Below are positions 8,621-48,872 of a stretch of 64,000 bases of DNA, in pieces. The number at the start of each line of letters is the position of its first letter. The first letter of the stretch is position 1. This stretch comes from Nitrospirota bacterium (lineage in GTDB: Bacteria; Nitrospirota; UBA9217): the NCBI GenBank assembly GCA_963740085.1, contig CAVUCU010000001.1, positions 160,001-224,000 on the forward strand. The letters are read 5' to 3'. The notes below the pieces were generated by a model, which was not told where the DNA came from, ran no database searches, and saw only the letters and a list, made by a program, of their open reading frames with translations. A program made the position numbers and the translations under genes.

Positions 8621-9616
8621 TTAACAGATCCTCGGCAACTGCTCGCCCTGCAGCATGTCAATGATGCGGGTCCCGCCGATCGCGGTTTCGAGCAGGACGC
8701 CGCCGGAAGGAGATTCCACAACCTCGCCGATGATGACGGCATGACGACCAAACTCGTGCTGATGCATTGCGGTCACGACAGCCCCTGCCACGGATGCATC
8801 TACGATAGCAATGAGTATCCCCTCGTTTGCCACAAAGATCGGATCGAGACCGAGAAGACTGCATGCTCCTTTCACGCCCGGAGGTATTGGAAGGGAGGGT
8901 TCCAGGATACGCATGCAGAGACCCGACTCCAGTGCCGCTTCTTTAAGCGTCGTAGCCAGTCCGCCGCGTGTAGGGTCGCGCATAAAGCGGATCCCGTTCG
9001 AGGCCGCATACATTACACTGACGAGGCCATTCAACGCCCTCGAATCGCTCGTAACAGGCGGATCAAAGGTGAGCCCGTTCCGTTCCGACATGACTGCAAC
9101 ACCGTGGCTGCCGATATCGCCGCTGATAATAACCTTGTCGCCTTTTTTGACATTTGATCCGGAAATTTCCCGTCCCTCAGGCACGACACCTATGCCGGAG
9201 GTATTGATGAATATCCCGTCCGCCTTGCCCTTGTTCACCACCTTGGTATCGCCCGCAACGATTTTTACCCCGGATTGCCGAGCAGCGACAGCCATGGACG
9301 AAATGATGGCCTTGAGATCTGCAAGAGGGAACCCTTCTTCGATCACAAATCCCGCGGTGAGATACAGCGGCTCCGCCCCGGAAACAGCAAGATCGTTCAC
9401 CGTGCCGTTCACCGCAAGATCGCCGATGTTGCCTCCGGGAAAGAAGAGCGGGGTGACCACATAGGAATCGGTGGTGTATGCAAGCCTGTGTGACGGCACG
9501 CTGACGTACGCTGAATCACCTGATTTCTGAATGTCAAAAGCAGGCCCGAAATGCGTTCGGATAAGTTCGTGCATCAGTTTGCCGCCACTGCCGTGCCCCA
9601 GGAGAATTCTATCCAT
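8621..9616 (-). CDS. hypE: Hydrogenase maturation carbamoyl dehydratase HypE
   Basis: ILLGHGSGG N-terminus, DPTRGGL, C-terminal GEQLPRIC. Confidence 0.95.
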   Translation of the reverse strand: MDRILLGHGSGGKLMHELIRTHFGPAFDIQKSGDSAYVSVPSHRLAYTTDSYVVTPLFFPGGNIGDLAVNGTVNDLAVSGAEPLYLTAGFVIEEGFPLADLKAIISSMAVAARQSGVKIVAGDTKVVNKGKADGIFINTSGIGVVPEGREISGSNVKKGDKVIISGDIGSHGVAVMSERNGLTFDPPVTSDSRALNGLVSVMYAASNGIRFMRDPTRGGLATTLKEAALESGLCMRILEPSLPIPPGVKGACSLLGLDPIFVANEGILIAIVDASVAGAVVTAMHQHEFGRHAVIIGEVVESPSGGVLLETAIGGTRIIDMLQGEQLPRIC

Positions 9617-10674
9617 GATAATTCCCGTATTTATAATATGCAGCACAGCTCCCCTCGGTGCTGACCATGCATGGCCCGATAGGATTTTCCGGCGTGCACC
9701 CGGTCCCGAACAGCGCGCATTCTGTCGGGACCTTTACCCCTCGAAGGATATCGCCGCAGGAGCAAAGCTCAGGTTCTGTGGCAGTCAGAGATCGGGGGAT
9801 GGAACCGTATATTCGCGTCAAATGCCGTGTAGTGCTCTCTGAGCTTCAGTCCGCTCCCGGGGATAACACCGATCCCCCGCCAGTAGGCGTCGGCAGACTC
9901 GAAATATTTCTCAAGGAGGGCAACGGCCCGCGGATTTCCTTCCGGGCGAACAACACTCGTATATTGGATCTCGATTGCCGACCTTTTTTCCGCAATCTGC
10001 CGCACGATCATAAGAATGCCCTCGATGATCTCCCCGGCCGCGAACCCGGTCACTACTGACGGTTTTTTATACTGTGCGGCTACGAACTCATACGGGTGAG
10101 TGCCGATGATCGTGCTGACATGGCCCGGCAGGATGAAGCCGTCCACTTGAACATCCGGCGAATCGAGCAGAGCTTTCAACGCGGGCGGTACAAGCTTATG
10201 CGCGGTGAAAATAGTAAAATTTTTCGTTCCCGCCGACTCGGCATGGGCGATTGTGCCTGCAATAAGCGGAGAGGTGGTCTCAAATCCTGTTGCAAAGAAC
10301 ACGACCTCCTTCTCCGGCGACTTTTGAGCAAGCGTCAGCGCATCAATGGGAGAATAGAGCACGCGTACATCAGCACCCTCGGATCGCGCTTCAAGAAGCG
10401 ACCCATTTCCACCCGGGACCCGCATCATATCACCAAAGGTCGCAAGAATGACCCCCGGGTTCCTCGCGATCGCGATCGCTGCATCCACGTCATGCACCGA
10501 GGTCACACATACCGGACAACCGGGCCCGCTTAAGAGCGTGATGTTTTTCGGGATCACATCGCGGATCCCGTGCCTGAAGATCTCGACGGTGTGAGTACCG
10601 CAAACCTCCATAAGCTTCAGCGGCCTGTTGATATCGGCCGTCAGTTGATGCAATTCATCAAGCATTTTTTTCAT
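9609..10674 (-). pseudogene. hypD: Hydrogenase maturation protein HypD, frameshifted as sequenced (one extra base near 9790-9800; possibly a sequencing error)
   Basis: MEVCGTHT, GPGCPVC and PGHVS in ORF 9769..10743; the C-terminal C.CG.IL.G...CP/ALFG..CTP..P.GPCMVS.EG.CAAYY block lies in the shifted frame (9609..9821). Confidence 0.9.
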
Positions 10675-10691
10675 TGTATTGTCCGCGCCCC

Positions 10692-13106
10692 TCACTCCTT
10701 GAGCCGCTCCCTGACCAGATACGCCTGCCCCAGAGAAATACACGCGTCATTACAGGGAACCTTATGATTCAGAAAAACGTTCAAGCCGTTCCAGGACAGC
10801 ACTTTGATCACCCTGTTCAGAATATAAAGGTTCTGAAATGTGCCGCCGCTCAAGGCAACATCATTGAGCCCAAACTGTTCACTCAACTCACTCACCATCG
10901 CGCGAACAACCGATACTATGGTATTGTGAAACTTCGCTGAGATTATTCCTGCTGCTGTTCCATGTGCGAGGTCGTTGTTGATGATCGTCAGGATAACCGG
11001 GGAGAAGTCGATGACAGTATACCCATTTTCTTTCTTGAACTCAACGTGATACTCGTCATCGATCCCCTCCTGCGCAATAGCCTCCAGTGCCATTGCCGCC
11101 TCGCCTTCGAACGTATTCCGGTCACCGATGCCGAGCAGTGCGGACACTGCATCGAACAGCCGCCCTGCCCCCGAGGCGAGGGGTGAAAATTCGCGCGATC
11201 GCGCGACGATCATAAGGTTCTCGATCATTTCCCTGCCGTATTTTTTGGCAAACCCTATCCGTTCCAGACAGTCGAAGGCGTTATCGCCTGCGGCCTCCAT
11301 AACATAACTTACGGCTGTCTTCCATGGTTCTTTGATCGCAGCTTCTCCGCCGGGTAACGGGACATATTTGAACTGTCCGACCCTGTCGAAACCCCCGATA
11401 TCTGCAATAAGGAATTCCCCGCCCCAGAGATTGCCGTCAATACCATACCCGGTTCCGTCGAATGCAACACCGATGACCTTTGTCGTCAAACCATGCTCGG
11501 CCATCACCGATCCAATATGAGCATAGTGATGCTGGATTCCGAATTTCTTTATGCTGTTCTCTTCCCCCTGACTCCCTTCCCCTGACCCCTGATTCACCGC
11601 CCCCTGCTCCGCCGCCCATTTCGTCGAAAGGTAGCCGGGATGCAGATCATGGACAATCGCCACCGGTTCAGATCGATAGACGGCCTTAAGATTTGCCAAA
11701 CACTCTTCAAAAAAACTCACGGTCTCGTAATTTTCCATGTCCCCCACATGCTGGCTGGGGATCGCAAACGATCCCTTGGTAAGCGTGAAGGTATTTTTCA
11801 AATCAGCGCCGCAGCCGAGCACTTCCGGTCCTTCGTCGTGAAGGGGAATGGGGTCAGGCGCGAATCCGCGGGATCTTCGAAGAAACTGCAGTTCATATTT
11901 CGGGGTCCGAAGTTCGGAGTTGATTGCTCTCCCAACTCCCGGCTCCCCGCTCCGGACCCGAATCACCGAATCATCGACTCGCATGAATATATCACGGTCG
12001 TGCAGGAGGAACCCGTCAACGATACCGGAAAGCTTCCGGATGGCCTCATCATTATCGCGTACGATAGGTTCTTCCGACAAGTTGCCGCTCGTCATTACCA
12101 GCGCCTTGAAATGCGGGTCCTTGATTTGAGCGCCGGATTCGGGCGGATGAGTGAACAAAAGAGCATGCAAGGGCGTGTAGGGCAGCATACACCCGATATA
12201 ATTATTATTCGGCGATACAGCCGCGGCAAGCACATCATGGCCATTCTTGCGCAACAAAACGATAGGCCGCCTGTTCGACTGCAGAACCTTCCGCTCCTCA
12301 TCAGAAATGGCGCAGTATTGCTCTACACAAGAGATATCATTCGACATGACCGCAAAGGGCTTATTACTCTTTCTTTTCTTTTCCCTCAATCTTGCGACGG
12401 CATCATCGTTACCTGCATCACAGGCAATATGAAACCCGCCGAGGCCCTTGATGGCGACTATACCACCGTCCCTCAATAGCTGGATTGCCGTTGTAATGGC
12501 CTTTGATCCCCGAGCCCCCGACTCCGGACCTCTCACTCTGAACTCGACCCGTGGCCCGCAGGCAGGACATGCATTCGGCTGGGCATGGAATCTCCGGTCG
12601 CGGGGATCGAAGTATTCCCTGAGACAATCAGGACACATCGTGAAATGGGCCATCGTGGTATTCGGCCGGTCATAGGGAACTGACCGGGTGATGGAATAGC
12701 GCGGCCCGCAATTCGTACAATTGATAAAGGGGTAAAGGTATCGCCTGTCAGAGGGATCCAGCAGTTCCCGGAGGCAATCGTCGCACGTCGAGGTGTCGGG
12801 GGATACAAGGGTAAAGGAACGACCAGCCGCAGTGTCGGTGCTGGCAAGAATGGCAAAATCAGTATACCCGTGATGGGGCAGCGAAGTTACGGTGACATCC
12901 GTTATCCGGGAGAGCGACGGAGATTCGCTGCGAATGCGCTGGACAAAATCGGCAACCCGCGCTCCCTCGATGTCGACCAGAACGCCCTCACTGGTGTTCG
13001 TTACATATCCCTTGAGACCAAGAGACTCGGCAAGGTTATAGACTGAGGGCCTGAAACCGACGCCCTGCACGATGCCTTTAATTATGATCTGAACCCGCTC
13101 AACCAT
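10692..13106 (-). CDS. hypF: Carbamoyltransferase HypF
   Basis: GIVQGVGFRP acylphosphatase domain, two CxxC zinc fingers, KGLGGFH, QHHYAH, PCNDACISLGQ. Confidence 0.96.
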   Translation of the reverse strand: MVERVQIIIKGIVQGVGFRPSVYNLAESLGLKGYVTNTSEGVLVDIEGARVADFVQRIRSESPSLSRITDVTVTSLPHHGYTDFAILASTDTAAGRSFTLVSPDTSTCDDCLRELLDPSDRRYLYPFINCTNCGPRYSITRSVPYDRPNTTMAHFTMCPDCLREYFDPRDRRFHAQPNACPACGPRVEFRVRGPESGARGSKAITTAIQLLRDGGIVAIKGLGGFHIACDAGNDDAVARLREKKRKSNKPFAVMSNDISCVEQYCAISDEERKVLQSNRRPIVLLRKNGHDVLAAAVSPNNNYIGCMLPYTPLHALLFTHPPESGAQIKDPHFKALVMTSGNLSEEPIVRDNDEAIRKLSGIVDGFLLHDRDIFMRVDDSVIRVRSGEPGVGRAINSELRTPKYELQFLRRSRGFAPDPIPLHDEGPEVLGCGADLKNTFTLTKGSFAIPSQHVGDMENYETVSFFEECLANLKAVYRSEPVAIVHDLHPGYLSTKWAAEQGAVNQGSGEGSQGEENSIKKFGIQHHYAHIGSVMAEHGLTTKVIGVAFDGTGYGIDGNLWGGEFLIADIGGFDRVGQFKYVPLPGGEAAIKEPWKTAVSYVMEAAGDNAFDCLERIGFAKKYGREMIENLMIVARSREFSPLASGAGRLFDAVSALLGIGDRNTFEGEAAMALEAIAQEGIDDEYHVEFKKENGYTVIDFSPVILTIINNDLAHGTAAGIISAKFHNTIVSVVRAMVSELSEQFGLNDVALSGGTFQNLYILNRVIKVLSWNGLNVFLNHKVPCNDACISLGQAYLVRERLKE

Positions 13107-13726
13107 GTGGCCCATGCATCGATCCCTGCGCCGCTCGTGCAAGAGACCTCGAATATCTTCAGTTTTGGATTGAGCGCAAGTGAATCGTTCCGAACTTTGT
13201 TCATATCGGTATTCATGTACGGCAGCAGGTCCATCTTGTTCAGGACCAGGGCCGATGACTCGCGGAACATGAGCGGATATTTGAGCGGCTTGTCGTGTCC
13301 TTCGGCGATCGAAAGCACCATCATTTTCATGTCTTCGCCCACCTTGAACTCGGCCGGGCAGACAAGATTTCCGACGTTCTCTATGATCAGCATGTCGAGG
13401 TCGCGAAGCGGCAGATCGTCCAGCACCTCACTGACCATATTCGCATCCAGATGGCACGCCCCGCCCGTATTGATCTGCACCACCGGAACGTTCAGGGCGC
13501 TGATGCGTTCTGCATCGTCGGAACCAACGATGTCCCCTTCTACCACGCCGATCTTCAGATGGGGTTTAAGGGCCTGGATCGTCCGTTCAAGTAGCGTGGT
13601 CTTACCCGCCCCGGGTGCTCCCATGAGGTTGACAACGTAAACACCCGCCTCGTGGAACCGCTTCCGGTTCTCCTCGGCAATACGGTCGTTTGCTTCAAGA
13701 ATGCGGGTGACGACCTTGACCTTCAT
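13082..13726 (-). CDS. hypB: Hydrogenase nickel incorporation GTPase HypB
   Basis: GAPGAGKTTLLE, TGGACHLDA, ENVGNLVCPAEF, NKMD. Confidence 0.96.
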   Translation of the reverse strand: MKVKVVTRILEANDRIAEENRKRFHEAGVYVVNLMGAPGAGKTTLLERTIQALKPHLKIGVVEGDIVGSDDAERISALNVPVVQINTGGACHLDANMVSEVLDDLPLRDLDMLIIENVGNLVCPAEFKVGEDMKMMVLSIAEGHDKPLKYPLMFRESSALVLNKMDLLPYMNTDMNKVRNDSLALNPKLKIFEVSCTSGAGIDAWATWLSGFRS

Positions 13727-14265
13727 CAGTTGATCTCCATATCCACGATTTCCATCTCGCGGCCGGTCTTTATTTCAAAGGACTTGGAACCGCAAAGGGG
13801 GCAGGAGAAGACGTACTGGGCATCATCGACGGTAAAGTCCTTTTTGCAATCATTGCAGACGCCGCCGACAGGAACCGATTCTATAACCAGATGGGCATTC
13901 TTTGCCACTGTATTGTCCTTGGCCGCATCGAAGGCGAAAACAAGGGAGTCGGGCATGACTCCGGCGGCTTTTCCGATACGGACATTGATCGAATCGACGG
14001 ACCGGCATCCTTCTTCCCTGCATTTTGTCTGGACGATATCGAGAATGCTCAGTGCTAGCGATGCCTCATGCATAATCTCACCTGAGTCAATTGTTTCCTT
14101 GTCGATTGTTTGTATAGCAAAACCGGCATGAACGAGCACATAATCGCCCACGTTCGGCTCTTCCGGCAGAAGCATGATGCTGACCTGCCGTTGAGCCCCA
14201 TATACATCGATAGTCGCGATAAGATTATCTATACTGACGATTTTTGAGGGGACTGCAAGACACAT
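13726..14265 (-). CDS. hypC/hypA: HypC-HypA in-frame fusion (HypC from 14265, HypA from MHE at 14073)
   Basis: MCLAVP...GDYVLVHAGFAI continues without a stop into MHEASLA...CNDC...CPLCGS...GREM. Confidence 0.9.
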   Translation of the reverse strand: MCLAVPSKIVSIDNLIATIDVYGAQRQVSIMLLPEEPNVGDYVLVHAGFAIQTIDKETIDSGEIMHEASLALSILDIVQTKCREEGCRSVDSINVRIGKAAGVMPDSLVFAFDAAKDNTVAKNAHLVIESVPVGGVCNDCKKDFTVDDAQYVFSCPLCGSKSFEIKTGREMEIVDMEIN

Positions 14266-14810
14266 TCGATGTTCCAATCTTTCAATTTCTTCAGCACATG
14301 ATCGATTATTGTATTTAACTGCTCTCGGACCTCAAGTGTCATCTCAAGACCGACATCAAGATATTTCGGCTGCACGCCGACGAGACAGACATCGGGAGGT
14401 GTATCCCGCATGAGTTTGGCGGCAAAGAGCACATCGGAGAGGCCTATATGGTGCACGGACAGCTTGGAATTCAACACCGAAGGGATATCATTCCCATTAA
14501 GGACACCAACATGACCTGCTTTTTTCCCAAAGTCCACTGCATCGATGATCAATATCTTATCACGCGTTTGAAAAATGGGCAAAAGGTCAAGCCCCATGGT
14601 TCCCCCGTCAATCAGATCAATTTCTGGAGAAAATAAATATCGCTCTTTCAGCAAATCGATCACATGTACGCCGACGCCTTCATCAGAGAGGAGGATGTTT
14701 CCTATGCCTAAAACAGTAACACGCCCGGTGTCACTATCGTCTGTAATCACCGGGCGTGCCTTAGAAACCTGATTACTATTTCCAGATCCCACTATTGATT
14801 TTACTCCCAT
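14229..14810 (-). CDS. hyaD: Hydrogenase maturation endopeptidase (HyaD/HybD family)
   Basis: VLGIGNILLSDEGVG, DGGT, IIDAV, SVHHIG. Confidence 0.92.
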   Translation of the reverse strand: MGVKSIVGSGNSNQVSKARPVITDDSDTGRVTVLGIGNILLSDEGVGVHVIDLLKERYLFSPEIDLIDGGTMGLDLLPIFQTRDKILIIDAVDFGKKAGHVGVLNGNDIPSVLNSKLSVHHIGLSDVLFAAKLMRDTPPDVCLVGVQPKYLDVGLEMTLEVREQLNTIIDHVLKKLKDWNIECVLQSPQKSSV

Positions 14811-15466
14811 TCTTTTCCGGTTACGAACTTATACCCGCCGAATATCGAACCCATTACACCATTCTTTTCCACGGAATCGAGATACCACCCGATGTACACA
14901 TGGATCAAAGTAAATGCTATCAGGAGGTACATGACCAGGTGATGCCACAGCCTGATCGTCTGCACATTCATGATCTGCACAAGCCAGCCGCCGGCGATCA
15001 TCAGGAAAAAGCTGTGAAGATGGCTTTGGGAATACAAAGCGAACCCTGTCAGCATCTCGAAGATAAACAACAAGAACACTCCGAGATACGTGATCGACGC
15101 CACTGCCGAATGGCCGACGGCATAGGGCGGCTGCTTTCTGAGAAACAGGTAGAATTTCAGCCCGCTCAGCATGTCTTCCCTTTGCCGCTTCCTCAGCGGG
15201 ATAAACACCCTCCAACTGGCGTACTTATTGCCGGCAAACATCCAGTAAATACGAATGATCATGCTGAAAAGAAACACGTAGCCCACAACAAAATGAAGAA
15301 ACCGTATCCACCCCATTATGTACTGCTGCGTGGACACCGCATGCATGAACGGGTTCCCAATATAGAACCCCGTAATGCAGAAGGCGACCAAACAGAGGGC
15401 GTTTATCCAGTGGGTAAAGCGGACCGGAAACTCCCATGCATATACTCGAATCCTGTTAGCCTGCAT
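14801..15466 (-). CDS. hyaC: Ni/Fe-hydrogenase b-type cytochrome subunit
   Basis: YAWEFPVRFTHW, RFLHF, RLWHH, IHVY heme-ligand His; 4 TMs. Confidence 0.92.
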   Translation of the reverse strand: MQANRIRVYAWEFPVRFTHWINALCLVAFCITGFYIGNPFMHAVSTQQYIMGWIRFLHFVVGYVFLFSMIIRIYWMFAGNKYASWRVFIPLRKRQREDMLSGLKFYLFLRKQPPYAVGHSAVASITYLGVFLLFIFEMLTGFALYSQSHLHSFFLMIAGGWLVQIMNVQTIRLWHHLVMYLLIAFTLIHVYIGWYLDSVEKNGVMGSIFGGYKFVTGKEWE

Positions 15467-15482
15467 GGCACACCTCCTCTCG

Positions 15483-17198
15483 CTAAACGATCCTGATCTT
15501 AGTTACTTCCTTCCCCTCGGCATCCACGACATGCACAGCGCAGGCCATGCATGGATCGAAAGAATGAATTGTACGAAGAATCTCGACCGGTTTGTTCGGA
15601 TCTGCGACCGGAGTGCCGATCAGGGATGCTTCATAAGGACCTCTCTGGCCTTTTGCGTCTCGAGGAGATCCGTTCCACGTACTCGGCACGACACACTGAT
15701 AATTCGCTATCTTTCCATCCTTTATTCGGATCCAGTGGCCGAGACAACCTCGCGGCGCCTCGTGGAAACCAACGCCTTTTGCTTCCTTGGGCCAGGTTGA
15801 GGGATCCCACTTCTCCCCATTGTGGATCCTGAGGTCTCCCTTTTTCATATTGGCCGTAAGCTCGTCAAGCCATGTTGGCAGCATCTCGGCTGTTACGAGG
15901 GTCTCGATGCCGCGAGCTGCAGTTCGACCGAGGGTGGAAAACAATGCTGCCGGACCGACATCCAGTTTCTTTAGCACCATGTTCACAACTTCCTGGACGC
16001 GTTTGTGTCCTGAGCCATAGGCGACCAGCATCCGGGCCAAAGGACCGACTTCCATGGGCATCTCGTCATACCGCGGAGCCTTGACCCAGGAGTACTTCTT
16101 GCTCTCACTCACAAAGCCGTTCTCGAAGGGAGGTTTCGGTCCAGAATACTTGAAATTGGTTTCTCCATCATAGGGATGAACCGATTTTGCATCGCCTTCC
16201 TTGTATTCGTACCAGGAATGGCTCACATATTCCATGATCTTTGTCTGGTCTACAGGATGCACCTTTGTCAGATCTTTGTTCTTTATGATCCCTCTCGGTA
16301 ACCACAGGTTCGTAGAATCAGGAGTGGAATCATTCGGGAAATCGCCACAAGCAAGGAAGTTTCCCACACCTCCGCCATAAGAAGCCCATTCCTTGTAGAA
16401 AGAGGCGACCGCAAGCAGATCGGGGACATAAACCTTGGCCACAAAATCATGGGCCTTTTTGGCGAGACCGCTAATAAAGGCAATGCTGCCCGCATTCAGT
16501 GCATGTTGACTGTTCGGATCTACCGGGATGGACATGCCGCCGACCAGATAGGTCTGGGCATGGGGGTTCTTGGCCCCGAGGAGAGCCTGAATCTTGATAA
16601 CATCGCGCTGCCAATCGAGCGCCTCAAGATAGTGCGCAACAGCCATCAGATTCGCTTCAGCCGGAAGCTTGTAGGCCGGATGCCCCCAATAGCCGTTCGC
16701 GAAAATCCCCAACTGACCACTTTCCACGAGTGTTTTGACTTTCTGCTGGACTCCCTTGAAATACGTCGCAGAATTATTTGGCCAGTCGGAGATCGACATT
16801 GCCAGAGACGACGTTTTTGAAGGATCGGCCTTCAGTGCACTCACCACGTCTACCCAGTCAAGTGCATGCAGATGATAAAAATGGATCACGTGATCCTGTA
16901 CATACTGGATTCCCAGGATCAGATTCCGGATGATGCGGGCATTATCAGGGATTACGATACCTAAAGCGTTTTCGACAGCTCGGACCGAGCTGGTTGCGTG
17001 AACCGTTGTTCAGACCCCTCAAATGCGTTGGGTGAACAGCCACGCATCTCGCGGATCCCGGTCCTTCACAATAAGCTCGATGCCGCGGAACATGGTGCTT
17101 GATGACCAGGCATCAACAACCTTTCCGCCTTCTACCTGAGCTTCGATCCTTAAATGACCTTCAATTCTTGTGATAGGATCTATTGCAATCTTCGGCAT
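15483..17198 (-). CDS. hyaB: Group 1 [NiFe]-hydrogenase large subunit, 571 aa, with two in-frame TGA (codons 60 and 63) predicted as selenocysteine
   Basis: ATG 17198 after GGAGGAGG RBS; MPKIAIDPITRIEGHL...FTQRI*GV*TTVH in frame with ORF 15483..16889, which ends SFDPCMACAVHVV plus a cleavable tail. Confidence 0.92.
16976..16992 (-). promoter_or_regulatory. Putative SECIS hairpin of the hydrogenase large subunit
   Basis: CAGCUCG-GUC-CGAGCUG, perfect 7-bp stem; loop G is +25 from the second UGA. Confidence 0.65.
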
Positions 17199-17232: not shown

Positions 17233-18309
17233 TCAATCCTTTTTTTCCTCGTCACTTTTGGGTTTCATGGCCCTGCCGATGCCATGCGCTGCCAGACCAA
17301 CCGCTGTAGCGACCGCCAGTCCGACTCCGATTTTGTCAGCCGTTGATTCAACGCCAAATCCAGGAACGTTCGGCAGCCTCTTATAGAATGGGTACATCGT
17401 GTCCCAGTTATTATCAGCTGCGCATGCGATGCACCCGTGACCTCCCTGCACCGGCCAGCTGGTTCCCTCATTATATTTTATTGTAGGACAATTCAGATTT
17501 GCTTCAGGCCCCTTGCATCCCATTTCATAAAGACACCACCCCTGGCGGTGTCCCTCATCCCCCCAGGTTCTGACAAACTGACCCGCATCGAAATGCGCTC
17601 TTCTCTCGCAATTGTCATGGACCCGTTGACCGTGAGCAAAAAGCGGCCGGTTATGGCTGTCCAACTGAGGCAACGAGCCAAATGTAAGAAAATGGACGAT
17701 GGTCGCGGTGAGATTTTCAGGATTGACGGGACAGCCGGGAAGATTCACAACCGTTGCCCCCGGTACAGCCTCCTTTACGCCGACAGCACCCGTCGGATTT
17801 GGTTTGGCGCTAGGGATGCCGCCCCATGAAGCACAGGATCCGATCGCGAGTGTGGCAGCTGCATTGCCGCATACTTCCCTGGCTATGGAAAGAGCTGTCC
17901 TGCCGGCTACGGTACAATAGATTCCGCCATCTGCCATCGGTATAGCGCCCTCAACGATTGTGATATATTTACCCTTCTGATTTTTCACAACATCTGCAAG
18001 AGACTTTTCAGCCATCTTCCCGGAAGGTGCCATTATCGTTTCATGGTATTCAAGGGATATGACGTCGAGCACAATCTGAGCAATCGTAGGTTTGCTCGCG
18101 CGGAGCGTTGCCTCTGAATCTCCGGCACAATCCGAGAATTCAAGCCACACAACATACGGTTTCTGAGCTTTCTCTAATGCCTCGGCAATCTTGGATATGT
18201 ATGATGCCGGCAGTGCCAACGTTGCGGCCATAGCAGCGCAAAATTTCATAAAATCACGCCGCGATACACCGCGCTTGACAAGACCCTGGTACACACTCTC
18301 GTCCCGCAT
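17233..18309 (-). CDS. hyaA: [NiFe]-hydrogenase small subunit with Tat signal and C-terminal membrane anchor
   Basis: SRRDFMK twin-arginine motif, DCAGDSE, GSCASWGG, PGCP, HDNC...CLYEMGCKGP...GHGCIAC. Confidence 0.95.
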   Translation of the reverse strand: MRDESVYQGLVKRGVSRRDFMKFCAAMAATLALPASYISKIAEALEKAQKPYVVWLEFSDCAGDSEATLRASKPTIAQIVLDVISLEYHETIMAPSGKMAEKSLADVVKNQKGKYITIVEGAIPMADGGIYCTVAGRTALSIAREVCGNAAATLAIGSCASWGGIPSAKPNPTGAVGVKEAVPGATVVNLPGCPVNPENLTATIVHFLTFGSLPQLDSHNRPLFAHGQRVHDNCERRAHFDAGQFVRTWGDEGHRQGWCLYEMGCKGPEANLNCPTIKYNEGTSWPVQGGHGCIACAADNNWDTMYPFYKRLPNVPGFGVESTADKIGVGLAVATAVGLAAHGIGRAMKPKSDEEKKD

Positions 18310-20049: not shown

Positions 20050-20649
20050 TTACCGTTTGACCGTCAGCGCAGCCTTCAGCTCCTCATCGATAATCTTCTT
20101 GAAATAGTCGAACTGCCGTTCACCGATGACCCTTCTTCCGTTGATGAAAAAGGTCGGCGTGTTATAAAGGTCCAGATCGACGGCAAGCTTGAGGTCTGCG
20201 TCGATCTCCTTTGCATGCTTCTGGGAATCGATGGATTCGGTGAACTTTTTTACATCCAGTCCCAGTTCTTTGGCATACTGAATAAGGCTAGCCCGGTCCA
20301 GCTTCGGGGATCTCTTGATCAGAAGGTCGTGCATTTCCCAGTATTTGTCCTGGTCTCGCGCCGCGAGGGACGCCTCTGCGGCAATGCGGGCGTAGTCCCG
20401 GTAGCGGTAGGGATAGTTCTTGATAACAAGGCGCACCCTGCCGTTGTAGGTTTTCATGATCTTTTTGACGGTCGGACCGGCCGCCACGCAATGGGGTCAC
20501 TGAAAGTCGATGAACTCGATGATCGTGACCGGCGCGTTTGTCGGTCCCATTTGCGGTGAATCGCCTATCGGCACATCATATCTTTTTTCCTGTGCTCCTG
20601 CATGAGAAGCGGCAAGAAGGACTATGATCACACAAATCAGTTTTCTCAT
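20050..20649 (-). CDS. Exported DsbA/thioredoxin-fold protein with UxxC (Sec51) active site, 199 aa
   Basis: ATG 20649, signal peptide, GPTNAPVTIIEFIDFQ*PHC (TGA at 20497-20499), TPTFFING cis-Pro motif. Confidence 0.88.
20467..20485 (-). promoter_or_regulatory. Putative SECIS hairpin of the DsbA-like gene
   Basis: GGCGG-C-CG-GUC-CG-A-CCGUC; loop G is +20 from UGA. Confidence 0.55.
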
Positions 20650-20780: not shown

Positions 20781-21386
20781 TTAAAACCCCTGTTCCTTAA
20801 CCCATTTGCCATGCCGTTTCCTCGCCCATTCGAGGGGTACGGTGCCGTAGACCATAATTCTGAACGTACCGGGATTGGCAAGGGAACCGAGGTAGATATG
20901 CGCCGGAATGGCAAAGACCAGGAAATCGAAGCTGATATTGTGAAGGAGATGCGCGAGTCGAACCATCTCAATCGTGCCGACCAGAAACCAGATCATGAAC
21001 CCGGAAATGGAAATCAGGTAGGCAAAGAACAGGAACACGAGGTAGAAGAGCTTCTGGCCCGTGTTGAGCGCCCCCTGCGGCGGAAGTGAAACCTTTTCCC
21101 GCGAGAGATACCCGCCTGCCTTCTTGATCCATTCCTTGTCGTCAGCAGTCCAGGTGACGGCTTCTTTGAAGTAGGCTGACATGGTCAGGAAAACCGAGAC
21201 TACGAACACGATGCCTCCCCAGTTGTGGAGCAACCGCATCACATTGAAGCTTCCGAAAAGCGAATTCAGCCCTTCAAGGTGAAAGAGAAACGCAAAGCCC
21301 GTAATGGCGAGCAGGAAGAAGCTTATTGCCATCACCCAATGGTTAACGATCTTTCCAACGGTCGCTTTTCTCACCATCTGTGCCAT
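20781..21386 (-). CDS. fdnI: Formate dehydrogenase cytochrome b556 (gamma) subunit
   Basis: NHW, LLHNWGG, NTGQKL, HLLHN, AHIYL; 4 TMs; operon context. Confidence 0.9.
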   Translation of the reverse strand: MAQMVRKATVGKIVNHWVMAISFFLLAITGFAFLFHLEGLNSLFGSFNVMRLLHNWGGIVFVVSVFLTMSAYFKEAVTWTADDKEWIKKAGGYLSREKVSLPPQGALNTGQKLFYLVFLFFAYLISISGFMIWFLVGTIEMVRLAHLLHNISFDFLVFAIPAHIYLGSLANPGTFRIMVYGTVPLEWARKRHGKWVKEQGF

Positions 21387-21387
21387 C

Positions 21388-22155
21388 TTACTTTACCTCC
21401 TCTTCTTTTTCTTTCTTCGGGCCGACGGCTGCGTAGTGGATAAGCGCAGCGGCCACCGAAGTCCCAAGGGCGATATAGGAAAGGGGTTTGAACACGTTGT
21501 CCCAGAAGATCACGGACTCGGCGATCTCCGGCTTCTCGGCCAGACCAAGGAGCTTCGGTGGGTCCTTGAAGGCATACAGTGTCCCCAGCCCCTCAAGATC
21601 CTGTTCACCGTAGACCTTGCTGAAGCCCTCTTTTTTCGCCGTGCCCACGAGTTCATCCCTGTTGCCGAAACGAAGCGTACCGGTGGGGCAGGCCTTCGCG
21701 CAGGCGGGCTCGAGCCCTGCCGCGACCCGGTCGAAGCAGAGGTGGCACTTTCCGATCTTGTTATTCTCGTCGTACCTCGGAACATCGAACGGGCAGCCCG
21801 CACGACAGAGTTTGCAGCCGATGCACTTTTCTTTATTGAAGTTTACGATGCCCTCCTTGGTCTTGAAGAGGGCGCCGGGCGCGGGGCAGATCCGTATGCA
21901 GCCCGCGTCGCCGCAGTGCATGCACCGCCGGTTCACGAAAAGCCACCGGAACTTGTCCGTCTCCGATGGCAGCTCAGAGTACTTGATCATGTTGAAAAGA
22001 TCGGGCGTGAGGTCCGGAGGATTTTGCATAGTGCCGGTGTTGATCGTTCTCTGGCCGGGGAGCTGGTTCCAGCTCTTGCACGCCGTCTGACAGGCCCGGC
22101 AGCCTATGCACCGCTCGGGAGTTACGAGTATTGCCTTTCGTGTCATCTTTTCCAT
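21388..22155 (-). CDS. fdnH: Formate dehydrogenase Fe-S (beta) subunit
   Basis: CIGCRACQTAC, CMHC...C...CP, CIGCKLC...CP, KCHLC...PACAKACP; C-terminal TM. Confidence 0.93.
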   Translation of the reverse strand: MEKMTRKAILVTPERCIGCRACQTACKSWNQLPGQRTINTGTMQNPPDLTPDLFNMIKYSELPSETDKFRWLFVNRRCMHCGDAGCIRICPAPGALFKTKEGIVNFNKEKCIGCKLCRAGCPFDVPRYDENNKIGKCHLCFDRVAAGLEPACAKACPTGTLRFGNRDELVGTAKKEGFSKVYGEQDLEGLGTLYAFKDPPKLLGLAEKPEIAESVIFWDNVFKPLSYIALGTSVAAALIHYAAVGPKKEKEEEVK

Positions 22156-22173: not shown

Positions 22174-25100
22174 CTATGCCTTTACCACATTGACCATAAA
22201 GGCCTTGGATTCCGGTATCATGGTGTTCGCGTCGCCGATGGTCGGCGTCAGCAGGTTCGCGCTGTCGCCGCCGCTGCCGTCCTTCGGATACTGCCAGCCG
22301 AAGCACCACGGCAGCCCCACCTGGTGTACGGTGGAACCGGCGACCTTGAAGGGCTTGAACCTCGCTGTTACGACCGCAATGGCCCAGAGCTCGCCCCTCC
22401 CCGACTTTACCATGACTTTTTCGCCGTTCCGTATGTTTTTCTCCTTGGCAAGTTCCTCGCTCATCTCAACGAACATCTGGGGTTGCATCTCGAGCTGCCA
22501 GGGTTCGTGCCTCGTCAACACACCCGTTTGCCAGTGCTCGGAAACGCGGTAGGTCGTCGCCACAAAGGGATACCGGACATCACAGGAGTAGAAAGCATCT
22601 TCCTTCTCGTTGAAAAGCTTGATCGTGGGGTTGATCCGCTGCTTTGACATCACGTTCTCCTCGAGCGGACATTCAAGGGCCTCATAGTGCTCGGGGAAGG
22701 GACCATCGGCAAGACCCGGGCCGAAGATCGCCCCGACACCGTCCGCACGCATGATGAAGGGATACTTGCCGGCGGCGTCCATGGGCGGCGCGGGCCCGTC
22801 GGGCACGTCACCGACCCACGTGCCGGGTTTCTTGGTCGCGGGGTTTTCTTTATTCGGGTCCCATTTGATGACCGCCCGCTTCGGGTCCCAGGGTCTCCCC
22901 TGGAGATCAACGGAAGCACGATTGTAAATAATCCTCCGGTTGACCGGCCACGCCCAGGTCCATTCAGGGTACATGCCGAGACCGGTCGGATCTGCCTTTC
23001 CCCTTCTGGCCATCATGTTGATGACCTTGCCCTCTTTCTGCGTGTAGCTCTGCGTGTATATCCAGTTACCGCTGGATGTCGTGCCGTCAGCCTGAAGATG
23101 GGCAAAAGTCGCGCAGAGCTCTCCCTTCTTGCCGATGAGCTTCGGGGGAGTTGCGGTCTTGTCGTACACGTCTTCGAGGTAGTAGCCGTTGATCTCTTTT
23201 GCCACATTGTGAATATTGATTTCCTTGATTTTTCCGTCCTGCCCTTTTTCGCCGTAGCTCCACGTCAGATTCAGGATCGGATCGGGGAACTTGCCGCCCA
23301 GCTTCTCGTAAAGGCTCTTCACGCGGAAGTAGAGTTCGTTCATGATCTCCGAGTCCGGTTTGGACTGGCCGATCGGATCAATGGCTTTATACCGCCACTG
23401 CGCCCAGCGACCGGAGTTCGAGAGACTTCCTTCCTTCTCCACGGATGAGCTGCAGGGCAGCAGGAACACCTCGGTCTGGATGTCCTTGGGATCCATGCCC
23501 GGGCCTTTCCAGAAAGAGCCGGTTTCGTTGTCGAAAAGATTGATGTTCACCATCCACTTGAGCTTGGAAAGCGCATTTCGTGTCTTGTTCGAATTTGCGC
23601 CGGAGCATGCGGGGTTCTGGCCCCAGGCGAAGAAGCCTTCGAACTTGCCCTTGAACATCTGGTCGAAGAGTACAAGCCACGACGCGTTCATGCCTTCGTC
23701 GAGCTTCGGGAGCCAGGCATAGCCGAAGTCGTTATCACGGTGCGCTTTGCTGCCGTAGATCGCCTTGAGGTAGCTCGTGATATATTTCCCCCGGTTTGAC
23801 CACCAGTTCACGCTTCTGGGGTCCTTGGTCTTGGGCGTATATTTCTCAATATAGGATTTAAGGTCCGCGAGGGAGCCTGCAGGCGTCGGGAGGTAACCGG
23901 TGAGGATGTGGAACAGGAGACCGTGGTCAGTAGACCCCTGCACGTTGCTTTCGCCGCGCAGGGCATTGATGCCGCCTCCGGCCATTCCCACATTGCCGAG
24001 AAGAAGCTGGACGATGCACATGGCCCTGATGTTCTGGGTCCCGATCGTATGCTGCGTCCAGCCCATGGCATAGAGTTCGGTGCCGACCTTATTGGCTTTC
24101 CCGGTGGAAGCGTAGAGTTTATAGACTTCGAGGAGCTTTTCCTTCGGAGTCCCGGTGATGTTCGACACGTTGTCGACCGTGTACCGCTTGTATTGTTTTT
24201 TGAGGAGTTGGAACACACAGTGCGGATTTTGGAGTGTATGGTCTTTCTTCGGGACACCGTTCTCGTCGAGTTGAAAGGACCATGTCTTTTTGTCGTACTT
24301 CCGGGTCTTTTCGTCGTAGCCGGAAAAGAGGCCGTTCAACTCCCCCGGTCCCTTGAACTCGGGATTCACGAGGAAGGGGGCATTGGTGTAATTGACGACG
24401 TATTCCTTGAAGAAGAGGTTGTTGTCAAGGATATACTTGATCATCCCGCCGAGAAAGGGAATGTCCGTACCCGAACGCATCGGCGCATAGACGTCCGACC
24501 TGGCGGCGGTTTGCGAGAACCGGGGGTCCACGACGATGAGCTTTGCTCCCCGCTCCTTTGCCTTCAAGATCCATTTCATGGAAACGGGGTGGTTCGATGC
24601 GGGATTGCTCCCCATAACGAGAATTACATCTGCATTACGAATGTCGATCCAGTGATTGGTCATTGCACCGCGTCCGAACGACTCTCCCAGAGCCGCTACT
24701 GTCGCGGAATGTCAGATACGGGCCTGATGTTCTATATATACCAGGCCCCAGGATCGCAACATCTTTTGGAGCATGTAACACTCTTCGTTGTCCAGGGCAG
24801 CGCTCCCCACATGGGCAATGCCGTCCGTGCGGTTCACGACGAAGTCCTTTTCTACTACCTTTTCCGTGCCGTCTGCCGCCTTTTCCTTCACCTTGGACTT
24901 CGAGGTGATCTTGAAGGTCCTGTCGCGGGTGTCCTTGATCCTTTTCGCGATCTCATCCAGCGCCCAGTCCCATTCGACTTCTTTCCAGTCCGCGGCGCCG
25001 GCCGCCCGATATTTCGGCTTCGTCAGGCGGAGCGGATTGTTGATGATCTGGTAGAGCGACGCCCCCTTTGAGCACAGGGTCCCTTCACTGATCGGATGGT

Positions 25101-25317
25101 CCGGGTCGCCCTCGGTGTAGATCACCTTCCCTTCTTTCGAGTACACGATGATACCGCAGCCCACCGAGCAGTACGGGCAGACCGTGCGGGTCTCTTTTGC
25201 GCCCTTGATTCTGAGTTCCCGCTCCTGTGCTTCAGCGGATCCGGGAGCGGCGCCGAGAGCCCCCATAACCAGAGAACTGCCGGAGATCTTCAGAAAATCA
25301 CGTCTTGATACCCCCAT
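22174..25317 (-). CDS. fdnG: Formate dehydrogenase alpha subunit, Tat-exported selenoprotein (Sec202), 1047 aa
   Basis: SRRDFLK, CPYCSVGC; HQARI*HSATVAALGESFGRGAMTNHW joins ORFs 24712..25317 and 22174..24663 in frame. Confidence 0.96.
24678..24696 (-). promoter_or_regulatory. SECIS hairpin of fdnG
   Basis: GCGGCUCU-GGG-AGAGUCGU; loop G is +24 from UGA. Confidence 0.75.
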
Positions 25318-48413: not shown

Positions 48414-48872
48414 TCAGTTCGACGCACGCGCATAGATCAAAGAAGAGACCTTCCTGCGTCCCCGGTCGGTATTGCGCAGGATACCCCCTTCTTTCCTCAC
48501 GGGCGCCTTCTGCCGCTGAAATCCCAAGGCGAGAAGATGACGGCCTGCGACTCGGTCTGCGGCAATATGCTTCATCGCAGAATAATCTAATAAATGTCGC
48601 AACACCTCCCGCCCGATGCCTCGACGTCGCCGGCTCCCATACAGGCTGAGCCGTCCTATTTGACTCTTGGCATCCTTTGAGAGAACCGCGAATCCGAGGA
48701 TCCGGTCCTCCCGCGATGCAACCACAGCGTCAGCCCCTGACACATCAAGAAACCCTTCTTGCCGCTTCTTCAGGATATCTGCGATATCGATCCATTCGGA
48801 TTCGTTTGCATGTCTTATATATACCACCTTCCCCGTGATACCCGAAATGCCTGTTTCCCGCGGATTGCCCAT
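48414..48872 (-). CDS. Hypothetical protein, GNAT-like
   Basis: YIRHA, RILGF, RRRGIGREVL motif. Confidence 0.55.
   Translation of the reverse strand: MGNPRETGISGITGKVVYIRHANESEWIDIADILKKRQEGFLDVSGADAVVASREDRILGFAVLSKDAKSQIGRLSLYGSRRRRGIGREVLRHLLDYSAMKHIAADRVAGRHLLALGFQRQKAPVRKEGGILRNTDRGRRKVSSLIYARASN

Follow-up and report, generated by a model that had tools for sequence, protein, structure and literature searches.

In a 64,000-nucleotide (nt) stretch of DNA from a Nitrospirota bacterium (assembly GCA_963740085.1, contig CAVUCU010000001.1, positions 160,001 to 224,000 of the forward strand; hereafter the window), the gene for the large subunit of a Group 1 [NiFe]-hydrogenase contains two in-frame UGA codons, one at each of the two N-terminal cysteine (Cys) positions that bind nickel. 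Both are probably read as selenocysteine (Sec, U) in a working Group 1 uptake hydrogenase. The parts of this reading differ in strength: judged from comparison with relatives, programmed recoding of both codons is almost certain, Sec is likely at the bridging position, and for the terminal position, too, Sec is the reading that best fits the sequences. An original prediction, made from the letters alone, had described the gene, the two UGAs, a hairpin and a small stem, and re-reading of the sequence and its translation found that description right in all particulars. The features, in window positions, are:

15483..17198, minus strand: gene of 571 codons, two of them in-frame UGAs, for the large (catalytic) subunit of a membrane-bound [NiFe]-hydrogenase of Group 1.
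17019..17021, minus strand: UGA1, codon 60, at the first Cys of the L1 motif RxCxxC, a terminal Ni ligand.
17010..17012, minus strand: UGA2, codon 63, at the second L1 Cys, the Ni-Fe bridging ligand.
16976..16992, minus strand: hairpin CAGCUCG-GUC-CGAGCUG of 7 bp, resembling a selenocysteine insertion sequence (SECIS), inside the T-S-S-V-R-A-V codons.
16999..17012, minus strand: small stem UGAAC-AACG-GUUCA, which takes in UGA2 and lies in the T-T-V-H codons.

The minus strand carries ttcacccaacgcatt TGA ggg gtc TGA acaacggttcac, its codons being TTC ACC CAA CGC ATT TGA GGG GTC TGA ACA ACG GTT CAC around the two UGAs. Translation of 17198..15483 with TGA as U gives 571 residues with U60 and U63, no other stop, and a C-terminus in FDPCMACAVHVVDAEGKEVTKIRIV; an AGGAGG lies 7 nt 5' of the ATG at 17198, and the 59 codons 5' of UGA1 are conserved, including the PITRIEGH motif. 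U60 and U63 correspond to Cys65 and Cys68 in the large subunit of Desulfovibrio gigas (1frv_B; PDB 1frv/2frv) in an alignment that is gap-free over the N-terminal 99 residues, QRI-U-GV-U-TTVH pairing with QRACGVCTYVH. As the first L1 Cys is a terminal Ni ligand and the second the Ni-Fe bridge (available texts of PMC13582414 and PMC8020662), this alignment supports the prediction that the UGAs fall on exactly these two ligands. Also as predicted, the C-terminal motif carries Cys and not Sec: it reads DPCMACAVH (residues 548-556, TGC/TGT codons) and is followed by a 15-residue tail, ahead of which, at query residue 556, the solved mature chains stop. Both standard Ni-binding motifs are therefore in place, with UGA substituting for the two N-terminal Cys codons. 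The TGAs were also looked for in metagenome contigs from four public runs of four studies, one of which may be the source sample. These contigs span 17008-17031, and among the differences listed (17031, 17037, 17043 and 17046) none lies at either TGA, with 12 more differences beyond that list.

The L1 codons were typed in 110 relatives, giving 30 UxxU, 14 CxxU and 66 CxxC genes and no UxxC; codon 60 is TGA in 30 of the 110 and TGC or TGT in the others, codon 63 is TGA in 44, and the C-terminal motif is CxxC in all 108 relatives that have their C-terminus on the contig. A homologue at E<=1e-50 is present in 42 of 61 related genomes; eight places (the window included) carry two TGAs, both on the L1 codons, and ten carry a single TGA, on the second L1 codon. 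A one-genome-per-species scan of named genomes yielded 80 loci (22 UxxU, 4 CxxU, 54 CxxC). By record title, the UxxU genes belong to Nitrospirota (Thermodesulfovibrionales), Thermodesulfobacteriota, Methylomirabilota (Methylomirabilia) and Chloroflexota (Anaerolineae, Thermoflexus). The 29 other UxxU assemblies have otherwise open frames that are 66-87% identical over residues 1-571, and the recurrence of TGA at the same two codons in all of them is far beyond chance. This tally, together with the covarying hairpin and the full Sec machinery described below, upholds the earlier proposal that the two TGAs represent programmed recoding and not two nonsense mutations.

Automatic pipelines had been expected to shorten the gene, and they do. 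Standard gene calling on the window returns only a 468-aa fragment, and among the best 120 database proteins matching the read-through protein, 77 are full-length Cys types (at most 82% identical) and 43 start past the UGAs. The shortened entries typically have 498 residues, the first of which is the Val codon of the hairpin loop.

A quick FastTree of 108 rows, without an outgroup root, shows the L1 states clustered but mosaic, with CxxU and CxxC genes nested in UxxU clades and at least six changes of the UxxU label forced by well-supported branches. One column of the protein separates Sec-type from Cys-type sequences (Y217 versus F), which is probably a phylogenetic effect. A separate clade, about 55% identical to the window gene, reads CGVU, with a Sec codon at the bridging L1 position only (loci L031-L039 and L041, in genomes G001, G003, G006, G012, G014, G018, G028, G029, G031 and G036, three of them in the window's genus). 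This CGVU paralogue is absent from the genome of the window, which carries the UxxU type instead.

The hairpin is the only conserved element 3' of both UGAs, in agreement with the earlier suggestion that one perfect 7-bp hairpin with a GUC loop might serve both. Numbered from the U of UGA1, positions 29/30-35 pair with 41-46/47, and the loop bases G37-U38 are the first two of a Val codon. Its local folding free energy (dG, in kcal/mol) is -9.3+-1.1 in 28 UxxU genes and -11.0+-1.7 in 14 CxxU genes versus -5.3+-2.9 in 66 CxxC genes. All 42 scored Sec-type sequences have GU at 37-38 and a local dG of -7.3 to -13.2; among the 66 Cys-type genes, GU is found in 14, a dG of -7.5 or below in 18, and both in four. 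Cys-type sisters within Sec-rich clades have weak hairpins (L092 -1.0, L102 -2.2, L136 -3.6, L146 -1.9), L107 (-7.8) being the exception. It is only this local hairpin that separates Sec from Cys types, as the minimum free energy of the whole 66-nt region does not distinguish UxxU, CxxU and CxxC genes (-20.6, -22.3 and -21.9).

Covariation in the stem provides additional support that it is kept as RNA. In an alignment of the window's clade (34 sequences, 33 of the rows distinct), three stem pairs vary (AU 12, GC 7, UA 6, UG 1; GC 19, CG 7; CG 28, UA 4), and two-sided changes occupy 25 cells, compared with 7.9+-2.6 in shuffles, none of 500 of which reaches 25. Stem pairing stands at 86.6% versus 22-46% when the partner is slid as a control, and the seven rows that appear unpaired at two of the variable pairs have a shifted register with a bulge. 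As the compensatory changes fall on non-synonymous codon pairs (Ser/Ala, Cys/Ala, Ala/Gly, Ala/Ser), the RNA structure constrains the protein sequence.

A search for the Sec machinery found all four genes in the same genome: a canonical tRNA-Sec (selC; 66.7 bits, anticodon tca, G73, 8/5 arms), selA (607.8 bits), selB (376.5) and selD (351.1), all four above curated cut-offs and selD with one in-frame TGA of its own. The hydrogenase gene thus presents a UGA aligned with Cys across species and a GU-loop hairpin at UGA2 in a genome that has selA, selB, selC and selD. General reassignment of UGA was considered and rejected, since UGA still terminates other genes and read-through is confined to specific codons.

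Two more genes of the window have in-frame Sec codons. The formate dehydrogenase alpha subunit (fdhA, 22174-25317, minus strand) has a twin-arginine translocation (TAT) signal and 1047 codons, with Sec at codon 202 (ARI-U-HSATV); with it stand open reading frames (ORFs) at 20781-21386 and 21388-22155, and downstream follows a gamma subunit (cytochrome b). Adjoining the hydrogenase operon, the gene of a lipoprotein that resembles DsbA/thioredoxin (20050-20649, minus strand; Rcas_1661 (seleno)lipoprotein family) has an in-frame TGA at 20499-20497 in the motif U-P-H-C. With the hydrogenase, these make three selenoprotein genes in 10 kb.

The large subunit belongs to an operon of standard layout for a membrane-bound uptake hydrogenase, maturation genes included:

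17233..18309, minus strand: small subunit with a twin-arginine signal, SRRDFMKF (TIGR00391 hydA, 441 bits).
14801..15466, minus strand: b-type cytochrome membrane subunit of the hydrogenase (TIGR02125, 161.6 bits, above cut-off).
14229..14810, minus strand: HyaD/HybD-type maturation endopeptidase (hupD) for removal of the C-terminal tail of the large subunit (TIGR00140, 158.5 bits).
8621..14277, minus strand: hyp maturation genes, with family model matches for hypC-hypA, hypB, hypF and hypD.
13726-14277, minus strand: hypC and hypA in one ORF of 183 codons (HypC, residues 5-62; HypA, 69-182).
13082-13726, minus strand: hypB.
10692-13142, minus strand: hypF.
9609-10743, minus strand: hypD, split by a frameshift.
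8621-9646, minus strand: candidate HypE ORF adjoining hypD, named by size and position alone.

The hypC-hypA ORF is either a fusion or two genes without a stop between them. The large subunit matches NF007778 (hydrogenase-2 large subunit) with 653 bits, and its best solved relatives are ordinary [NiFe] enzymes (3myr_B, 743 bits; Hyd-5 4c3o, 669 bits). It is accompanied by a TAT small subunit, a cytochrome b in the membrane and a protease for C-terminal processing, as in Group 1 membrane-bound uptake enzymes, and it is the one Group 1 large subunit of the 3.46-Mb genome. Taken jointly with Sec at both UGAs, the working product is probably the catalytic subunit of an uptake [NiFe]-hydrogenase that is anchored to the membrane on the periplasmic side, as its motifs and neighbours indicate. 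A 72%-identical database protein (P0071) is labelled "hydrogenase, group If" by its source, and the nearest Cys-type relatives come from Geobacteraceae, Acidobacteriota and Roseiflexus; this name and these relatives hint at membership of Group 1f in the HydDB scheme.

The two UGAs stand at unequal distances from the hairpin. Its loop lies at +28-30 from the U of UGA2 and at +37-39 from that of UGA1, placing the loop G-U at +28/29 and +37/38, respectively, and the hairpin position is identical in CxxU and UxxU genes. In the fdhA SECIS of the same genome the GGG loop lies at +27-29 from the U of its UGA, a spacing so close to that of UGA2 that the hydrogenase element appears to be placed for the second UGA. 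The bSECISearch range from UGA to loop is 16-37 nt, of which +37/38 for UGA1 is the upper edge. Taken together, this spacing and the lack of any UxxC in 44 Sec-type genes suggest that UGA1 depends on the element serving UGA2. In a mechanism drawn from these distances, SelB with Sec-tRNA-Sec would bind the single SECIS, which is spaced for UGA2; the same SECIS would also serve UGA1, three codons upstream, and a second SelB complex would load once the ribosome has advanced 9 nt. The resulting Ni site would have one terminal and one bridging selenolate and two C-terminal thiolates. This full picture, with Ni held by two selenolates and two thiolates and two UGAs three codons apart read through one SECIS spaced only for the second, by an extended SelB reach or a hand-over, is advanced tentatively, its chances falling a little short of even. 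If it is true, either SelB and a SECIS have a hitherto unrecognised capacity to serve a UGA about 9 nt past their normal range, or two SelB complexes hand over.

A further tRNA-Sec-like gene, with a UCA anticodon and U73, was found outside the window:

G000:C1:48516-48610 (locus L002 1498-1592), minus strand: second tRNA-Sec-like gene, 95 nt including CCA.

It matches RF01852 at 48519-48611 with 52.6 bits, above the gathering score, and received no ARAGORN call. Its sequence, GACUGGUU...CUUCAAA...AACCAGUC-U-CCA, folds with an acceptor of 8 bp, a D stem of 6 bp with a 4-nt loop and a T stem of 4 bp, with UCA, U73 and a CCA end that is encoded in the gene. Immediately upstream stands yedF (selenium metabolism), with mobA on the other side. 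The published features of selC*/tRNAReC are a length of at least 80 nt, a UCA or GCA anticodon, U73 (PMC5389517) and a tRNA-Sec-like fold, and this tRNA has them all. Eleven homologues were aligned and a covariance model of 11 tRNAs was built, by which the UCA type occurs in 13 of the 61 related genomes, all of them in the window's family (13 of its 37 genomes): two of six UxxU genomes, five of ten with CxxU and six of 21 others. A GCA-anticodon type with the same U73-CCA end was found in G007, G048, G056 and eight named Nitrospirota genomes; the census of this type in the 61 relatives is incomplete, as E<=1e-8 was used and the G048 copy scores only 43 bits. An association of selC*-like tRNAs with UxxU among relatives was considered and rejected, as the tRNA follows lineage and not motif.

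Several observations weigh against selenium at both positions of a working enzyme. UGA1 lies 9 nt beyond the hairpin spacing that fdhA and UGA2 use, and E. coli SelB has little tolerance for a change in spacing. A selC*-like tRNA occurs in 11 of the 30 UxxU genomes (two of the UCA type, nine of the GCA type), and to judge from its tRNA genes this organism may put Cys at one of the codons or at both, above all under selenium shortage. The hypD frame gives 324 aa and then a TGA, with the authentic C-terminus (...CSCGDILRG...CMVSTEGSCAAYY) in another frame and the junction near 9795-9780, in a run of five C. This is the only hypD copy in the assembly, and if the frameshift is real, maturation would fail; the split could be either an assembly homopolymer error or a genuine maturation defect. 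Lastly, Evans et al. (PNAS 2021; available text of PMC8020662) placed Sec at each ligand of E. coli Hyd-1: activity fell to 3% in C76U and 13% in C79U, O2 tolerance was no better, and at 10% O2 both variants were almost without activity, so that the benefit of a natural double substitution is not obvious.

The strongest competitor to Sec at both codons is mixed, selenium-dependent decoding, in which the second tRNA, charged with Cys, would compete through the same hairpin and SelB. UGA1, badly spaced, would then most likely receive Cys, or both codons would when selenium is scarce, and the enzyme would in practice be CxxU or CxxC. The RF01852 score, 8/4 arms, U73, CCA and place next to yedF all speak for such a tRNA, its features match those of the selC* tRNACys in the available text of PMC5389517, and the share of UxxU genomes with selC*-like tRNAs has a parallel in Group 4 UXXU genomes, about 56% of which have tRNAReC (available text of PMC13582414). 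However, within the window's family the tRNA tracks lineage, as the counts above show, and no selC*-like tRNA was found in 19 UxxU genomes, three of which, 86-89% complete, also have no detectable tRNA-Sec. Among the 19 are nine from Chloroflexota, eight of which have the canonical tRNA-Sec, and the sub-threshold matches there that were examined, those of at least 88 nt, are all tRNA-Ser. As the Chloroflexota genomes yield only tRNA-Sec, both UGAs there are readable by tRNA-Sec alone, and from these censuses we conclude that UxxU appears to be independent of the mimic tRNA. Moreover, no selB* or cysS* paralogue scores above cut-off in the window's genome, which has one selB and one cysS, and if a UGA with its costly hairpin only ever delivered Cys, UGC would do as well, whereas selection on the hairpin is clear. 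Mixed decoding is accordingly held unlikely, though with a real share of the probability. The original prediction had put selenium at a terminal and a bridging ligand: the recoding it invoked has held up, while selenium at both is something that we infer, and the U73/UCA tRNA could deliver Cys.

A second alternative is that each UGA has an element of its own. The small stem, UGAAC-NNNN-GUUCA in general form, would serve UGA1 and the main hairpin UGA2; in Chloroflexota the part of the small stem could instead fall to a hairpin ACGGUG-CAUG-CCGU, whose loop spans +21 to +24. The small stem had been offered as a possible element for the first UGA, and the Val codon closing it is GUU in 21 of 28 UxxU genes versus 5 of 14 CxxU and 20 of 66 CxxC genes. 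Across the 33 distinct rows, however, compensatory changes in the small stem are absent: the Thr-Thr-Val-His codons fix four of the five pairs, which are invariant, while the fifth pairs as A-U in 24 rows and is open in nine. Its loop has no G-U. That earlier suggestion thus found no backing, and the small stem may or may not be functional. In several Chloroflexota UxxU genes a further hairpin does fold between the UGAs and the main one, but both candidate extra hairpins are clade-specific and not common to all UxxU genes, leaving separate elements improbable. The extra Chloroflexota hairpin is itself an observation of six loci (L095, L098, L105, L111, L113 and L148), where it spans about +15 to +30 from UGA1 with its loop at +21-24; it does not occur in Nitrospirota-type genes.

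That the gene is dead or mis-assembled, with translation ending at codon 60, would agree with the 468-aa fragment of standard calling and with an assembly that has at least one frameshift, at the C5 run of hypD, but it is scarcely credible for the sole Group 1 hydrogenase of a genome when both TGAs recur in 29 other assemblies, the upstream codons are conserved, the hairpin covaries and metagenome contigs retain the TGAs, and on these grounds sequencing error and pseudogene were rejected.

Sec at both N-terminal ligands remains the preferred reading, and its consequences reach beyond this genome. No [NiFe]-hydrogenases are better served with structures and electrochemistry than those of Group 1, and natural selenium at both N-terminal ligands would be the direct counterpart of the engineered Hyd-1 C76U and C79U, showing a role for selenium outside its classical position. 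The gene family is widespread (30 genomes) and systematically mis-annotated, so surveys of hydrogen metabolism undercount UxxU enzymes. UxxU is also a clean natural test of the reach of a bacterial SECIS, the asymmetry in spacing making the decoding mechanism testable. With a Cys-type tRNA-Sec mimic in many genomes, it becomes testable as well when such tRNAs replace Sec, and if the reading is true, lineages with a Cys-charged mimic could switch the selenium content of the active site with the selenium supply.

The closest known systems are the Group 4 [NiFeSe]-hydrogenases in which Takano et al. (Front Microbiol 2026, PMC13582414; cited here from its available text) described N-terminal CXXU, UXXC and UXXU motifs in an in silico survey of that group. 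In that account Groups 1 and 3 alone had earlier been on record with Sec variants, UXXC and UXXU, now found in 47 Group 4 sequences, were "previously unrecognized", a single SECIS for both UGAs of UXXU is raised as a possibility, and tRNAReC is able to put Cys at a SECIS-dependent UGA. The same source cites Baltazar 2011 for N-terminal CXXU in two Group 1 sequences and one Group 3 sequence, and PMC8020662 alludes to the Group 1 pair. Two selenoproteome reviews list hydrogenases only with UxxC in their available texts (PMC13188914, PMC9312934). A full-text literature search returned no report of UxxU in Group 1, with the supplementary tables of PMC13582414 and PMC5389517, which may overlap with the present genes, outside its coverage. 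The candidate "new type" of the original prediction goes too far: UXXU is new for Group 1, whereas CXXU in Group 1 and UXXU in Group 4 were already published in PMC13582414.

As for the second tRNA, selC* tRNACys are described with U73, a GCA or UCA anticodon and, in deltaproteobacteria, 8/4 arms with full selABCD also present (Mukai et al., NAR 2017, available text of PMC5389517). The tRNA found here shares U73, UCA, the tRNA-Sec-like D arm, the 8-bp acceptor, the 4-bp T stem and the company of a complete selABCD. It differs in having no adjoining selB* or cysS* and in a G1:C72 pair, compared with A1:U72 in the UCA forms tied to cysS*.

Like the classical [NiFeSe] enzymes of Desulfomicrobium baculatum (1cc1) and D. 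vulgaris (Hys, 2wpn/5jsh), the window's hydrogenase is periplasmic, with a UGA-encoded Ni ligand and selABCD. In those Group 1a enzymes, however, Sec is the C-terminal terminal ligand (DPUxxC), whereas here that motif is DPCMAC; they match at about 350 bits over residues 177-569 only, versus 743 bits for 3myr_B, and the HysA model NF045518 gives 426.5 bits against a cut-off of 780. In the Hyd-1 variants C76U and C79U, from a membrane-bound enzyme that is likewise of Group 1, Sec occupies the same two ligand positions, but each is a single substitution made through UAG and EF-Tu (PMC8020662, available text), whereas the natural gene has both at once and under selection. The Group 1 CXXU sequences cited from Baltazar 2011 in PMC13582414 share the Sec codon at the bridging L1 position, and the 14 CxxU genes found here are of that kind; unlike them, the window gene has Sec codons at both L1 positions, the terminal ligand included. 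The Group 4 UXXU genes (PMC13582414, as far as its available text describes them) are the nearest in layout, with a distance of 9 nt between the UGAs, a single SECIS-like hairpin after them that has G in the apical loop, a C-terminal Cys motif, Sec and Cys types mixed on the tree and tRNAReC-like tRNAs in some genomes. They differ in belonging to energy-converting, multisubunit enzymes, whereas the present enzyme is of the periplasmic uptake kind, with cytochrome b and a small subunit exported by TAT, and Group 4e has UXXC, which is absent from the 110 genes typed here. What is new is thus UXXU in a Group 1 enzyme, an extension of the motif known from Group 4.

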